DNA of 62,757 nucleotides, counting the filler, from Eubacteriales bacterium (GTDB lineage: Bacteria; Bacillota; Clostridia; Oscillospirales; CAG-382), in the NCBI GenBank assembly GCA_045636665.1. It is 7 parts of 7 records of this genome, joined end to end, with 100 filler letters (N's around TTAATTAATTAA, not from the genome) between each part and the next. Parts side by side here need not be neighbours in the genome. Positions count along the whole stretch, not along the records: positions 6,991 to 18,790 come from JAZTXY010000034.1; 6 more parts are not named here. One strand, 5' to 3'. Below, piece after piece: positions 9,001 to 15,000 of the stretch. A program made the position numbers. Positions within the stretch are counted from its first letter, which is position 1. Every line of letters begins with the position of its first letter.

Positions 9001-12000
9001 CTTCCTTCTTTTCGAGGTTTTCATACTTTTTGTCGAGATTTTCTTCCTTCTGCATCGCACGTCTTTCCATGCGCTGAAGGTCGTTTCTTCTCTCTTTCAA
9101 TTCGCGCTCGGCTTCGTTCTTGATGCGAAGCGCTTCTTCCTTAGCTTCTACAAGCTTTTCCTTTTTTGCTGTTTCAGCAGCTTTTTTTGCATCCTCAATT
9201 ATGCGTTTGGATTCTATTTCCGCGCTTCCGATCTTCTTTTCGGCGATCGTTTTGCGAACCATAAATCCTACGATAAAGAACAGGACGGCAGCACCGGCTA
9301 TTAAACCAATAGCTAAAAACAGGTTCATATTTGCCTCCTAAAAATATATTTTATCCCGAGGCAACGCGATTCTGTCCGACTGATAAGTTCTATACTCTGA
9401 TTTTCAACAAAATATATAGTTATTTCGCCGCGGCAGACGCCTTGGCATCGGTATTCACAGTAATTATACATATTTTATTTACTAAAGTAAATAGTTATTT
9501 CCAAAAAATTATAAACAATGTGTAAATTTAACCGTAATTTTTATTCTTTTCGGTTGCATCGTCAGGTTTTTTCGGGTATAATCCAAACCGTGATATAAAA
9601 TTTCGGAGGTTATTTGTATGTGGGGAACGCTTCGCACAATCGGTGTCTTCATTTCGGTCCCGATGGCGGTCTATTTCTTTTTCTTCATCAAGCGCGCATT
9701 AAATTTCTTCTTCCCTAACCTTAAAAAGCAAATTCTTTACGGTATTTCGGCTGCCTTGGGCGTCGCAATCGGCTTGACGGCAACCGATATTTTCGGCTTC
9801 CCCGCGGTTTTCCTGCTTCACGTTATGGTCTTTTCGCTTCTTGCGAGGCTTATCAATTTCATCCTCAAAAAAATCAAGGGCGGCAAAGCGGAAAAGGCAA
9901 AAATCTGGCAAATCCTTTACAAAAGCGGCGCTTTGACGCTGGCGATAACGCTTGTATTCACGGTCTACGGCTATATCAATCTTCACAACGTCGTTGCGAC
10001 CGAATATAAAATAACCACCGAAAAATCAATCCGCGCCGAGGGCTATCGCGTTATCCTCGTTGCCGACGTGCATTACGGCGTTTCGGTCGATGATGCCGAA
10101 TTAACGCGCATTTGCAAGGAAATCGAATCGTTATCGCCCGATATGGTCGTGCTTTGCGGCGACATTGTCGATAACAACACGACTGTGAATCAGATGAAAT
10201 ACGTTTTCTCGCAATTCGGCGCAATCAAAAGCGAATTCGGCACCTTTTACGTGCACGGCAACCACGACAAGCCCTTTAGCTTCGCAGGGTTTGAAAGCGA
10301 ATTTTCGGAAAGCCTGCTCACCTCGACGATAAAAAACAGCAATATCAGAATACTTGCCGACGAAGCGGTCGAAATCAACGATGATTTTCTGCTTGTCGGA
10401 CGCAACGACCTCAGCCAAAGAAACAGAATGCACGTCGACAAGCTGCTTGAAAACGCAGACGCAGACAGATTTATCCTCACACTCGACCACCAACCGCGCG
10501 ATTACGATAATATAGCGGCGTCGAAAACCGACCTTGTCATTTCGGGACACACCCACGGCGGACAAATTTGGCCTATCGGGCTTGTGCAGGAGCTGTTCAA
10601 TATGAATGACGAGGTATACGGTCACGGTTATTACGATGAAGACACGCAATTTATCGTAACCTCGGGCTTTGCCGGCTGGAAATACCCCATAAAAACCGAA
10701 AAATATGCGGAATATGTGGTGATAGATGTCGCTTCGCTTTCGTGAAAAATTCTTCGAATTTTCCCCGTCTTTTGTGATGTTCGTTGCTTAATCCCTAAAA
10801 ATCTACGATTTTCAGGGGACCCATTCTCGCGCCTCGCTCACCGCTCGCGAACATCTAAGGTATAAAAATCCACGGGGTCCCCGAAAACATTTATGTTTTT
10901 GGGGCAAAAGGCGCATGTCCCCGAAAAATATGGAATTTTCATGGGATTTATCGCTAACGCGCGCGACGCTCCAAGGAATATTTTTCAAAGGGAAGCCTTT
11001 TTTATTTGTTACGGCAACGGTCTGAATAGCCTTCCCCCGAGGGGGAAGGTGGCAAAATCTTTGATTTTGACGGATGAGGGGTTCTTTACTACAAATATAT
11101 GAATGCAAAAGGAATTTCCCCTCATCAGTCAGTGCTATTTTACCGCACTGACAGCTTCCCCCCGAGGGGAAGCCTTTTTTCATCCGTTCCGTTTATGTCC
11201 TACGGTTGCGTTAAATCACTGTGCGTGACGGCGAGAATAGCCTTCCCCCGAACGGGGTCCCCGAAAAATATAGGATGTTTATGGGATTTGGCGCTAACGC
11301 TTTCGTGAAAAACGCAGGCATTTCGGGCGGAAATCCGTGCGGAAAGGTTTATGAGCGCGTGTGCTAACCGATAAAGCATATTTTGAAGACTGTATTTATT
11401 TACGGTCTTCTTTTTTTATCCGCTGTTTTCGAGCAAATCATCAAATCCGCGTGATAACGTAGTTGCTGTCAATTCGTCATCAATCGACGATTCGAAAAAT
11501 TCGGAACGGCTGTTGATGCTCGGCTGCGCTTTTTTAAAATCATCGTACGCGCCCGACAGTATCTTTTCGATATGCCCGATTATCCAATCGAAATCCGCCT
11601 TAAAGCCGTTCTTTTTCCTGCCCGTTAAGTGGTCGGACTTCTCTGCCCGAAGGAAGCATTCCCTTAAACGGTCAGCGCCGTATTGCTTAATTGCGCTAAC
11701 AAGCGATGCTTGTTGATTAAATGATAAAGAATTAATTTTTGTAAAAGTAGTGTTGTTGTTAAAAAAGTCGGTCAATAGCTTTTCTTCGCTCTCGGCTTTT
11801 TCTATCTCGCGCGCAGACGCGTGCTTTTCTGACTCTACTTCTACTTCTTTTTCTTTTTCTTTTTCTCTTTCTCTTTCTTTTTCTACTTCTACTTCTGTGG
11901 TGGGACAAGTTTGGGACAAATTTTGCGTATATGCCGAAACCGCTTCGGACGCAACCTTTTTCGCGCGGTATTCACGTTTTCTTTCACGCTCTCTGTCGCG

Positions 12001-15000
12001 CTTTTCCTGATCCTGCTCCTCGAACCAATCGAGTATTTCGATAAAGCCCTCGCCGTCGACCGAAATAATGCCGACCTTCTCAAGAATCGCCAACGATTTT
12101 TCAACCATATCGGTCGGCATATTGAATTCATCCTCGAAATCGGTGGATGTGTAGGGCGTTTTTTCATTAATATAAACTCTGCCGCCGTCGTTAAGCTCTG
12201 CCGCAAGGGCATAAAGTATCTGCCAAAGCCCAACAGTGGCGATTCCGTTTTCGGTTCTGTAAATCTTGCGTACACGTCTGTCGTGAAGTAACGAAAACGT
12301 GTGTGATTTGTACCATTGCAATCCTCTCATATCTTTTGCCTTCCGTGTTTTATTACTGTAATAATTTTAACACACAAAGCACCGAAAATCGTCCCAACTT
12401 TATCCCGACTTTATCCCAAAAAAATCCCAAAAACAAAGCACTCTGCACAATAAAACGTGCGCTTTTTTGAATGTTTTGAATAAAAAACATCTGTCCGCCT
12501 TTTGCGTTCCTTTTATTTTTCCGCGGTTGTTTTATATCGCTATGCGTTGATAAAAAGCCTTCCCGTTTATATAGCTTTGCGACAAAAAAATCCACCCCCA
12601 AAAGGGTGGATTTTTTCAAGGAAACCTTTTATGAAAAAGCTATTTTCGCGTTTGCTTTTTTATTCCCAAGCGCATTTATCATATTTTGTGACAAAATGCG
12701 TAATTTAACGATTAATTACATGGGAGAACCGTCTTTTGCACGGCGGATTTTGTTTGTGGTGGTCTTTACAAACGGGGTTTCGCGGATGACAACGTTGGTT
12801 ACCTGCTTGTAGGTGGGAAGAGCCTCGAGCGCCTTGAAAACGTCGCGCTTCAATTTTGCTTCAAGAGCTTCCTTGCCCTCTTTTTCAAGCATTTCGGGGT
12901 CGACAACACACTGAACCGCAAGATTTTCTTCTTCGCCGTTTTCGTTTCTGTCGGCATAAACGATGTTTTCCAAAACGTAGGGGATACCGCCGATATAATC
13001 CTCAAGCTCTTCGGGATAAATGTTCTTACCGTTGCCGAGGATGATGATGTTCTTTTTACGGCCGGTGATCAAAATTTGACCCTTCTTGTTCAACTTACCG
13101 TAGTCGCCGGTACGGAAATAGCCGTCTTCGGTGAATACTTCCTTGGTTGCTTCCTCGTTCTTGTAATAGCCGAGCATTACAATATCGCCCTTAACGCAGA
13201 TTTCGCCTTCGCCGTCCTCGTTGGGGTCGTCAATGCGAACGGTAACGCAAGCCATCGGGAAGCCGACGGTTTTGGGGTCGTTAACAAAGTCGGTGTTAAC
13301 CGAAACGAGAGGCGAGCATTCGGTAATGCCGTAGCCGTTGGTTACCAAAATACCGATATTGTCGAAGAAATCGGCGATTTCGGCACGCAAAGGCGCACCG
13401 CCGCAAACGATTTTTTCAAGATTGCCGCCAAGCGCGTGGTGAAGCTCTGCAAACACCTTGCGTCTGATATCGATACCGATATGACGAAGGAAGCGGGTGA
13501 GCTTAATACCTGTCTGAACGGTTTTGGTCTTGCCCTTTTCCTCGATGCTCGCTTGCATTCTGCGGTAAAGAACCTCCATAAGCGCAGGAACAACGTACAT
13601 ATATTGCGGTTGATAAAGCGCAAGGTTTTTAACGATTCTCTTAAGGCTGTCGTTAATGCAAAGCGTTGCGTGGCGGTGGATTGCAACCAAAATACCTGCA
13701 ACCGCTTCATAGGAATGGTGATAAGGAAGCACCGAAAGACCAACGTCGCGGATGGTCGCAAGGCCCAAGCCGTAATGAACGAGCGAAAGAATGTTGTGCT
13801 CGGAAAGCATAACGCCCTTTGCAAGACCGGTTGTGCCCGAGGTGTAGATGAGCATCTTCATCTTTTGAAGGTCATCGTGCTTCATTTCGAGGAACGACTT
13901 ATCGCCGTTTTCGAAAAGCTCTTTACCCTTCAAAAGGAATTTGTTAAAGGAAAGATATTCGCCTTCATCCTCTTCACGGTCGAAGCAGATGAAATATTTA
14001 ACGTTGGGGATTTGGTCACGGATGCGCTTGAATGCTTCCTCGCGCTTTTTATCGCAGAAGATAATATCATCGTCGCCGTGGTTGATAATGTTTACAAGGT
14101 CGGAATCGGGAAGCTCCTTGTCAATGGGGCAGAAAACACCCTCGCTTTGAAGCGCCGCAAGGTAAACGAGTATCCAATTATAGCTGTTTTCGCCTGCGCA
14201 GGCAATGTGTCCCTGAGCAAAGCCGAGCGAATTTATCGCAGTGCCGAGCCAAAAAATTTCCTGCTGAAATTCCTTATATGTAACCTCGCGCACGCCCTCG
14301 CCGACAGCACGGAATTTATAAGCAACGGTGTCGCCCGCTTCACGCACTGCGTTTGCAACAAGGTCCTTAACGTCGCATACGGGAGTAAGCTTGGGAGGAT
14401 TTTGTCCGATCGCGTTTCTCATCATAATCAAATTTCTCCTGATAATAAAAATTAATCATCGTTACGCAAAACATTATATCTGGTTTTCAAAACTATGTCA
14501 ATAGATTTTTAAGATTATTTTTGCGTTTTTTCGGGTTTTTTTGTCGGTTTCGTTGACAAGCTCACCTTTTTTTGGTAAAATTAGGGCAACAAAAGTTCTG
14601 ACGGAGCATAGTTATGAACCTGCGAAACGACGAATTCAAAACCTTAACGCTGCCGAGGTGGGAGGATTTTCCCGCGTTCGAGCTTTATATCGACCAAGTT
14701 ATCAGCTTTGTTTGCGAAAATCTTAAAATTTTCTGCAACGACGATGAACCGCTTATCACCGCGGCGATGATAAATAACTACGTCAAAAACGGCGTGCTTC
14801 ATCCCCCCGTTAAGAAAAAGTATGACCGCACACACCTTGCAAAGCTTATCGTTATCTGCATCGGGAAGCGTATTCTTGCGCTTTCGCAAATTTCGGATGC
14901 TATCTCGGTTATGTCGCGCGGATATGATATTGCCGAGGGCTATAACATCTTCTGCGACGAGGTGGAATACGAGGTAAAAAGCATCGCCTTCCCCGATGAA

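Follow-up and report, generated by a model that had tools for sequence, protein, structure and literature searches.

One promoter motif links a GTA-like operon and an orphan phage-type initiator gene in a CAG-382 bacterium, with an orphan LexA-boxed Ltr gene as its probable switch

In the genome under study (Eubacteriales bacterium, CAG-382, GCA_045636665.1; about 80% complete; G000 below), we found that a GTA-like operon and g00371, an orphan gene for a phage-type replication initiator, stand behind the same promoter motif. This is probably a domesticated phage late promoter that is switched by a single orphan Ltr gene under a LexA box, with g00371 as a downstream target. The motif, its distribution, the orphan gene, and the box were read from sequence, while binding, repression, and induction are carried over from the known Ltr and LexA families. 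In the proposed circuit, DNA damage would lead to RecA-induced cleavage of LexA and to synthesis of Ltr, which would bind 11-bp-spaced GGGA repeats beside a weak -35 region and thereby drive transcription of scattered loci. The predicted targets are a podovirus-like head and packaging operon, lysin and tail-fibre genes, the gyrase operon in some species, and initiator-derived cassettes such as g00371. Positions without a contig name refer to the window, the whole stretch of 62,757 nucleotides that was analysed.

The promoter motif in the genome, its relatives, and phages

The motif is composed of 11-bp-spaced GGGA repeats, GGGAYGA, 19 nucleotides, and a -10 box. Before g00371, the core GGGACGA, a 19-nt spacer, and the -10 box TAAAAT occupy 12364..12395 on the minus strand, and three more GGGA direct repeats with an 11-bp period (12406, 12417, and 12428), which are putative Ltr sites, extend over 12396..12428 on the same strand; the preliminary description placed the end at 12400 and thus cut these upstream repeats off. 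The exact pattern GGGAYGA-N19-TANAAT occurs four times in G000 (C34:5405 on the minus strand; C124:1082, C126:13868, and C138:39504 on the plus strand), and a variant with N20 occurs once (C34:8332, plus strand). It had been cautioned that the training of the weight matrix included the C124 site. When the matrix was retrained on 34 sites from relatives only, with all G000 sites and the near-identical terS site of G032 excluded, the scores were 50.9 bits for C34:5405 (the g00371 promoter), 49.3 for C138, 45.3 for C126, 44.6 for C124, 40.5 for C130, 28.3 for C34:8332, and 15.6 for C81, against a best control score of 15.3 bits (reversed genome and three local shuffles). Six sites are clear on this matrix and C81 is borderline, and the motif before the GTA-like operon and g00371 is confirmed as real.

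As a measure of the functional regulon, the earlier count of about seven sites is too high, because three of them (C126, C130, and C34:8332) seem to be passengers. The C126 site lies within a remnant bounded by a tRNA-Val duplication, and the C130 site resembles a phage ltr-terS junction with a TIR gene pair. C34:8332 (15287..15354, plus strand) is a solo promoter with a 20-nt spacer and no gene behind it, placed among hairpin repeats; this stretch is unmatched at the orthologous locus of G005, G027, and G032 and finds matches elsewhere in G003, G005, and G027. Placement of defence genes under the GTA promoter at C130 found no support: a search of 60 genus genomes did not recover the segment, and in one phage the same TIR pair separates ltr from terS. 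A leaderless basic peptide at C138 was rejected, since its frame and start are not kept in relatives (judged by eye).

Counted by hand over the 61 genomes of the genus set, which are not independent observations, the bare pattern has 59 matches versus 15 in the reversed control, so the statement that it is not enriched over that control does not hold genus-wide. With the repeats included, the counts are 109 versus 1, also by hand and with a pattern derived partly from the same genomes; a loose pattern without repeats showed no enrichment over the control in five genomes. The motif stands upstream of terS in all 30 fetched loci (23 by regular expression and the other seven by a looser search; three more genomes with a terS match gave no locus and are outside this count). 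Forty regions were fetched around bare-pattern matches, and the nine without repeats were set aside as chance. The 39 repeat-bearing sites that were read in relatives, labelled partly by eye with examples checked, comprise nine tail or baseplate-like genes, seven gyrase operons, seven initiator genes or N-terminal pieces, four terS genes, four instances of a conserved 175-aa gene, two lysins, four low-complexity stretches, and two without a label. Gyrase is under the motif in 11 relatives (no motif was found before gyrB in the 80% complete G000), and the amidase gene has a motif of at least 12 bits in only 12 of 30 loci. The regulon is therefore wider than first stated, as it includes tail, lysis, and gyrase genes in relatives, and the idea of a dispersed phage-derived regulon that joins the GTA-like operon and g00371 is supported.

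To judge by its sequence, we are dealing with a late promoter of the RinA/ArpU (Ltr) type that was domesticated from phages: the motif also lies directly 3' of ltr-type genes in phage contigs (L087, L099, and L111/L112). Most of the 41 viral pattern matches are chance, and four lie behind ltr-type genes. Nine further phage ltr loci (L190-L198) were chosen by protein homology rather than by motif. By eye, GGGA/GGAA/GGAC repeats and a -10 box follow the stop codon in seven of them (L191, L192, and L194-L198), with weak repeats in L193 and none after the ltr stop in L190, and only two of the nine exceed 12 bits on the matrix. G221, which belongs to another family, also has this motif ahead of terS, and its orphan ltr adjoins a CI-like gene. 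In G250 the recognition helix is a different one and the repeats read TTGTCA.

An orphan Ltr-like gene under a LexA box

The probable regulator of the GGGA-repeat promoters, by homology, is a single orphan Ltr-like gene of 145 aa that lies among host genes outside the window (C25:6612-7049). With phage Ltr proteins as queries, only this gene stood out in G000 (tblastn E 6e-11, HMM E 1e-15; next best 0.012). Of 36 same-genus genomes, 34 carry it and 31 carry terS. The protein matches PHROG 36 and 248 (transcriptional regulator/activator). It shows the small size and the C-terminal sigma-4-like DNA-binding domain of the Ltr superfamily: its structure model (pLDDT 94.7) resembles, among viral folds, phage sigma-70 region 4 and DUF1492 proteins (top three E 2.5e-5 to 4e-4). 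It stays below the curated cut-offs for ArpU (TIGR01637, 18.1 versus 43.1 bits) and RinA (TIGR01636, 13.3 versus 31.9), which its phage homologs miss too, and has no Pfam match; searches of G000 with DUF1492 and sigma-70 region 4 did not recover the gene. PDB searches by sequence and fold gave no match at E <= 0.001 for this protein or g00371, and Rfam gave nothing in the ltr leader or at the solo promoter sites.

The described Ltr regulators RinA, ArpU, and LtrA-C share with the C25 protein a length of about 145 aa and a C-terminal sigma-4-like helix-turn-helix; they control packaging and lysis genes and bind short direct repeats upstream of the terS promoter (PMC3753634), such as those at all 30 terS loci here. 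Unlike theirs, the C25 gene stands alone between host genes and lacks a late promoter on its 3' side (there is no motif after its stop in G000, whereas the phage homologs do have the repeats and terS arrangement), and its product would work in trans at dispersed loci, gyrase and initiator genes among them. Besides missing the family cut-offs, the protein is acidic (pI 5.24; 5.2-9.2 across 24 aligned proteins, phage ones included), while Ltr proteins have been described as basic (PMC3753634). Their genes sit at the end of a cI-controlled early operon (PMC3753634), whereas the C25 gene is under a LexA box.

That box, an exact GAAC-N4-GTTC, which is the Bacillus/Clostridium LexA consensus (PMC4234289), is found at the promoter of the orphan ltr in 30 of 30 loci. 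It occurs in only 4 of 1405 upstream regions of G000, and the four intergenic boxes include those of recA, a dinB-type polymerase, and the orphan ltr. The box overlaps a consensus sigma-A promoter, and LexA and RecA are both present (lexA was found in G000), as in a LexA regulon with the operator over the promoter. No exact box was found before lexA itself in G000 or in the sequence retrieved around the ltr genes of G227 and G292, and a CI-like gene lies beside ltr in families f22 and f25. An exact GAAC-N4-GTTC also occurs ahead of ltr in two of 11 phage loci, where it falls within the last part of the gene before it.

The initiator gene g00371

The gene g00371 (11416..12330, minus strand, 304 aa) encodes an orphan phage-type replication initiator. 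Its assignment to the replisome-organizer type was borne out by Phage_rep_org_N (PF09681, E 7e-16, 58.8 bits versus a cut-off of 23.3) and by replisome-organizer PHROGs (10469 and 4880), with TIGR01714 just under its cut-off (47.5 versus 49.8). The N-terminal replisome-organiser domain (residues 13-125; 11956..12294, minus strand) is winged-helix-like and presumably origin-binding; its AlphaFold model gave only weak winged-helix matches (E of at least 0.08). The C-terminal phage initiator domain (about residues 185-265; 11536..11778, minus strand) also exists in several relatives as a separate gene that follows the same promoter. Phage initiators carry origin iterons in linker-coding DNA, and the linker-coding DNA of g00371 does contain the previously noted pair of 11-bp reverse-complement repeats (11900..11925, plus strand); the seven other full-length homologs have other sequences at the same position.

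The C-terminal tail (residues 281-304; 11419..11490, minus strand) is like that of the host DnaB/DnaD-type co-loader (hhalign probability 95%, E 3e-8), which is encoded at C77:12474-13388 next to a DnaI/DnaC-like loader; this co-loader contains two DnaB_2 domains and ends in a short conserved tail. This host-like tail is present in g00371 and its orphan homologs and absent from all phage initiators inspected. In B. subtilis, the C-terminal tail of DnaB binds the AAA+ domain of DnaI (PMC13326638), and, by analogy, the g00371 tail is most likely a docking site for the DnaI-type helicase loader of the host; no other loader was found in the 80% complete G000. A predicted complex of the C-terminal part with the host loader scored 0.19 (mark 0.32) and was counted neither way. 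In relatives, the initiator is full-length, N-only, C-only, linker-only, or absent. Its distribution is patchy: the family was found in 15 of 36 genus genomes, and among the 13 with a completeness of 90% or more just two have it as an orphan, so it is not a core part of the regulon. A small tree of 20 C-terminal domains, from which eight rows failing the motif cut were left out, sets phage and orphan rows apart. Phages encode the initiator early, ahead of ltr, and not behind the late promoter (PMC3753634), as also seen in phage loci L342 and L346, so that the fusion of promoter and initiator arose after capture.

Alternative readings and known systems

From the sequence comparison, g00371 is a target of the promoter and not its regulator. 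That g00371 itself or an AbrB-type host protein binds the GGGA repeats, as the preliminary description considered, is very improbable, although no search aimed at an AbrB-type protein was made: the two reverse-complement copies of a similar 11-mer in its linker and the weakly matched winged-helix-like domain would suit such a role, but none of the other full-length homologs has the same linker repeats, whereas their promoters keep GGGA-type repeats, as do those where the DNA-binding domain is missing. The motif also stands before terS where no initiator was found (e.g., G011, G013, G022, and G036) and is tied to ltr genes in phages. It is rather unlikely, though less so, that the promoter and activator serve head, tail, and lysis genes and that g00371 and the solo copies are prophage debris with no role in the particle. 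The patchy, fragmented forms of the initiator, the settings of the C126 and C130 sites, the lineage-specific C34:8332, and a C-terminal domain only 38-47% identical between close relatives fit debris. The frames are nevertheless open, with dN/dS of 0.15-0.45 in the seven homolog pairs where it was estimable; N-only genes with the promoter recur in eight genomes; the late-promoter fusion postdates capture; and phage initiators lack the host-like tail. Moreover, G071 captured an unrelated initiator (DUF6291) with its own loader under the same motif, among host genes. For a downstream initiator, we tentatively suggest that full-length copies could set off run-off replication from the repeats in their own linkers, which the putatively loader-docking tail and the independent initiator and loader pair of G071 make plausible on circumstantial grounds. 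A slightly less favoured possibility is that the initiator or its pieces tie up the loader and stall replication of the host while DNA is packaged, and it could otherwise have another role or none.

The regulon could also be as described and the particle be a PBSX-like killer or a capsid-forming satellite instead of a GTA, which we regard as rather unlikely. Direct SOS control with a lysin would suit a suicide weapon, and the paper on FpGTA of Faecalibacterium leaves a tailocin reading open (PMC12946183). Against this, 31 of 36 genus genomes have the terminase, portal, and capsid operon in a host-gene setting, with one match each and no integrase beside it in G000. Its layout, in which tail and lysis genes have loci of their own, matches that of FpGTA I and II (PMC12946183), which package about 9-kb host DNA. 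The operon thus has the GTA trait of conserved single-copy chromosomal head and packaging genes with neither an integrase nor its own replication module; the best phage matches of the capsid are about 30% identical, and five queries found no tail-fibre gene in the 80% complete G000.

The likeness to FpGTA is one of layout: an operon of about ten podovirus-like genes (TerS, TerL, portal, scaffold, capsid) and a separate tail-fibre, baseplate, and lysis locus, in gut Clostridia (PMC12946183). The words "promoter", "regulator", and "activator" are absent from the main text of that paper. BaGTA and the ROR module of Bartonella (10.1101/2024.11.20.624540) likewise combine a phage-derived regulator at a separate locus for the capsid operon with phage replication genes. 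BrrG, however, is a Q-like antiterminator in the ror locus, above the capsid genes, whereas an Ltr-type activator is proposed here, the initiator is downstream of the regulator, G000 has no phage helicase loader, and run-off replication is only a candidate. PBSX of B. subtilis, with its Xre repressor and Xpf activator, is a DNA-damage-inducible defective phage that packages host DNA; it is alike in that a phage-encoded positive factor (here Ltr, as predicted) drives the late genes, and it differs as one contiguous locus with its own repressor, compared with scattered genes and a proposed switch on host LexA.

GTA-like packaging by gut Clostridia has been shown only recently (PMC12946183), and the LexA–Ltr circuit would supply a candidate master activator, an inducing signal (SOS), and a motif for locating scattered GTA parts in any genome. 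No prior description of such a LexA–Ltr–GTA circuit appeared among the matches listed in the open-licence PMC and bioRxiv literature. If the circuit holds, DNA-damaging conditions should set off the transfer of chromosomal DNA in these bacteria, and expression of one 145-aa gene should be enough for particle production. The circuit also suggests a route of phage domestication in which the late activator shifted from cI to host LexA control and the Ltr regulon gained host gyrase and a putatively loader-docking initiator. A broader synthesis, which is speculative and on the whole unlikely to hold in every part, has LexA and the orphan Ltr controlling head, tail, and lysis genes together with a replication arm. 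In this synthesis, the host-tailed chimeric initiator would call the host loader, with gyrase added, in a convergent Bartonella-like run-off; the dispersed cassettes of promoter plus linker would serve as satellite origins and bias packaging towards particular parts of the chromosome; and, in other families, an orphan Ltr under a CI-like repressor would be the missing regulator of FpGTA-type elements.

As a side observation, 11300-12470 is almost uncovered by contigs of four DNA runs at 80% likeness, with none spanning it, and nothing is concluded from this. Downstream of g00371 and outside the regulon, 10760..11300 holds multi-copy hairpin repeats, which we take to be REP-like, with many matches per genome in five relatives.

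The promoter motif and its occurrence

The source genome (G000) is an uncultured genome of 1.8 Mb, estimated as 80% complete, several contigs of which are strung together in the window; the relatives compared with it are metagenome-assembled genomes of Clostridia and Eubacteriales. Contig C34 occupies window positions 6991–18790 and carries g00371, an orphan phage-type replication initiator gene (11416–12330, minus strand), whose neighbours encode a metallophosphoesterase and an AMP-binding enzyme. The core of the promoter motif, GGGAYGA-N19-TANAAT, lies at 12364–12395, with GGGA repeats at 12406, 12417, and 12428. 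The preliminary description placed this motif before both g00371 and the GTA-like operon, and this holds: it stands upstream of terS, a head-operon gene, in 30/30 loci fetched, and in 14 of 21 distinct initiator loci, G000 counted. Two initiator loci lack the motif, and these have mobile-element surroundings and a loader-like gene downstream; one more is truncated within the motif by a contig end, and four come without upstream DNA.

A pattern search of G000 returned four exact copies and one copy with a 20-nt spacer. Of the roughly seven sites proposed earlier, six score 28–51 bits on a weight matrix trained on 34 sites, all from relatives, while the C81 site, at 15.6 bits, barely exceeds the control maximum of 15.3, and three sites are passenger-like. 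The earlier caveat that the bare pattern is not enriched no longer stands across 61 genomes of the genus, where hand counts gave 59 matches versus 15 in the reversed sequences. With the repeats included the hand counts were 109 versus 1, for a pattern derived from some of these same genomes. The terS gene itself has a single match in each of 31 of 36 genus genomes.

In the phage loci L087, L099, and L111/L112, the motif comes immediately 3′ of a small RinA/ArpU-like gene. Nine further phage loci were collected by protein homology, and related repeats and a −10 box past the stop codon were recognized by eye in seven, weakly in one and not in one, with only two of the nine reaching at least 12 bits on the matrix. 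When viral contigs were scanned for the motif, 41 matches came up, chiefly by chance. Judged by its sequence and position, the motif is very probably an Ltr-type late promoter. Four viral contigs (L029–L032) share 54% TerL identity and the head-gene order of the GTA operon while carrying their own replication genes, and are possible free-living relatives of it. The terS leaders (L055–L084) open with a conserved GTCGGATGCG-like sequence just past the −10 box, unseen at the other regulon promoters.

An orphan ltr gene as candidate activator

Three phage Ltr-type proteins used as queries led to a single gene in G000, ltr (C25:6612–7049), flanked by vanZ-recN and by a gene for a large surface protein (tblastn E 6e-11; HMM E 1e-15, next best 0.012). 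It is present as a single copy in 34/36 genus genomes and was found in 13/16 family genomes, with dN/dS of 0.07–0.2; where any of its 107 homologs carries a source name, as few do, this reads “hypothetical protein”. The protein model shows a coiled coil and a sigma-4-like helix-turn-helix, and is closest in fold to phage sigma-70-region-4 and DUF1492 proteins. Counting against Ltr membership, the protein scores below the cut-offs for both ArpU and RinA, matches nothing in Pfam, and is acidic. We have fairly high confidence that this gene would encode the activator of the late promoter. The alternative that g00371 itself is the regulator, raised in the preliminary description, is contradicted by its linker repeats, which differ from those of seven other full-length homologs while the promoter repeats are GGGA-type throughout, and by the terS motif occurring also in genomes in which the searches detected no initiator.

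The ltr promoter in G000 reads TTGACA-N17-TATAAT, followed by CGAACAGATGTTCG, and an exact GAAC-N4-GTTC is found at ltr in 30/30 loci. This is the LexA operator described for Bacillus and Clostridium (PMC4234289). G000 has ten such boxes, four of them intergenic (at recA, a dinB-type polymerase gene, ltr, and one other), and the box is present in 4 of its 1405 upstream regions. A lexA gene is present in G000, with no exact box seen upstream of it. At phage ltr loci, an exact box was found upstream in 2/11, in both within the 3′ end of the preceding gene. The ltr gene is very likely LexA-repressed. A late-promoter copy precedes ltr itself in 4/30 loci, where positive feedback would result; G000 has no such copy.

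Two other families, f22 and f25, instead have their orphan ltr next to a divergent CI-like HTH/S24 gene amid host genes (L227–L238, L348–L350). The motif before terS is identical in type in the single f22 example (G221); the single f25 example (G250) has a different recognition helix and TTGTCA repeats. Such pairs may be minimal phage switches controlling GTA-like operons in these families. In G227 and G292 (L212, L214), ltr lies downstream of a WYL-domain regulator gene; upstream there is a sequence resembling the late promoter, and the fetched flanks contain no exact SOS box. Most of the 30 ltr leaders keep a hairpin with the loop GCTCCAT (C25:6520–6560 in G000; L126, L127), part of which complements the ribosome-binding site; Rfam returned nothing for it, and it is possibly a cis-regulatory RNA.

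Predicted regulon members and the probable nature of the particle

In G000 the predicted regulon comprises the head operon (TerS, TerL, portal, capsid, holin), the C81 amidase-dockerin lysin, g00371, and C138. The amidase gene scores at least 12 bits in 12/30 loci, and one further amidase gene is the last of a motif-headed operon. The C81 lysin (L005:5169–5999) combines Amidase_3 with a type I dockerin, a domain also found on many host proteins. Among 39 repeat-bearing sites in relatives, labelled partly by eye, four precede terS, nine tail/baseplate-like genes, four a conserved 175-aa gene, two lysins, seven gyrase operons, seven initiator genes or N-terminal pieces, and four low-complexity stretches; two have no assignment. 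Family labels were confirmed on examples (BppU_N, collagen, gyrase B, peptidase M15, DUF6291, IstB), and several of the tail-like proteins gave no family match. The motif stands before the gyrB operon of 11 relatives (L246, L265, L267, L270, L362, L363, L365, L367, L369, L378, L386) and is missing from the gyrase operon of G000. Some motif-headed gyrB operons start with an extra 89-aa gene. The proteins of about 175 aa, of no known family and at times in two copies (L361, L366, L370, L385, L261), are likely a virion or receptor-binding component.

Three solo sites in G000 look like passengers. The C126 site, upstream of an Abi gene with its own promoter, belongs to a remnant with a duplicated tRNA-Val at its borders; the C130 site, inside an integrase element, looks like the ltr-terS junction of a phage that has the same pair of TIR genes; and the stretch around C34:8332 is unmatched at the orthologous locus in three close relatives. 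The anti-phage genes near two of the solo sites (L004:3956–5122, L003:6177–7154) comprise, in the integrase element, a ThsB-like TIR gene and its small membrane partner and, within the tRNA-Val remnant, an Abi_2 gene. An ordinary SAM riboswitch precedes metK (L002:8011–8111).

The particle is probably a GTA; a killer particle or a satellite is less likely, and the mechanism is proposed throughout from sequence and known families. The head operon stands apart from tail and lysis loci, as in FpGTA I and II of Faecalibacterium (PMC12946183), a likeness of layout. Ltr promoters, LexA boxes, and FpGTA-like operons are already known; what appears new is their combination, with an orphan Ltr under putative direct LexA control and a scattered GTA regulon including gyrase and a chimeric initiator. 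No such circuit was found described in the open-licence PMC and bioRxiv literature. The main text of the FpGTA paper does not use the words “promoter”, “regulator”, or “activator” (PMC12946183), and BaGTA of Bartonella differs in that its regulator is described as an antiterminator from its replication locus (10.1101/2024.11.20.624540).

g00371 and the initiator family

From its upstream sequence, g00371 is a predicted target of the promoter. These searches detected its family in 15/36 genus genomes and, among the 13 near-complete ones, found it as an orphan in two; the family takes full-length, C-only, N-only (8 genomes), and linker-only forms. C138 is linker-only; eight similar cassettes align with it, one of which remains in frame with a C-terminal domain. 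In three close relatives the g00371 locus retains the C-terminal part or more (C-only in G027), and dN/dS was 0.15–0.45 in the seven pairs where it could be estimated. In orphans with an intact end, the tail matches that of a host protein with two DnaB_2 domains (hhalign 95%), whose gene adjoins one for a DnaI/DnaC-like loader; an extra residue of the G000-clade host tail also occurs in the G005 and G032 orphans, and the host-like tail is absent from every phage initiator inspected. Because in B. subtilis the tail of DnaB binds the AAA+ domain of DnaI (PMC13326638), we infer that the orphan tail is a loader-docking motif. G000 has no loader besides the host's.

We consider it likely that g00371 is kept by selection for a role in the programme. 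In G071 an unrelated initiator with its own loader lies behind the same promoter amid host genes, and such repeated recruitment of initiators, with gyrase in the regulon, favours a replication arm. A preprint on the mouse gut reports run-off-like coverage peaks in an Oscillospiraceae genome, together with genes for an initiator and a loader (10.64898/2026.07.08.737213). A run-off origin is a tentative reading of g00371 itself, and a loader decoy is only slightly less likely; the C-only and N-only forms suit a decoy no less than an origin.

The 200–300-nt leaders of C-only initiators (L010, L011, L013, L016, L018) and C138-type cassettes (L002:9540–9900) are built of simple repeats with the reverse complements behind them, can fold as long hairpins, and vary in repeat unit by species. 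Near-identical C-only cassettes (96% protein identity) lie beside rplL in two species (L016 in G017, L024 in G005), reflecting either recent transfer or bin contamination.
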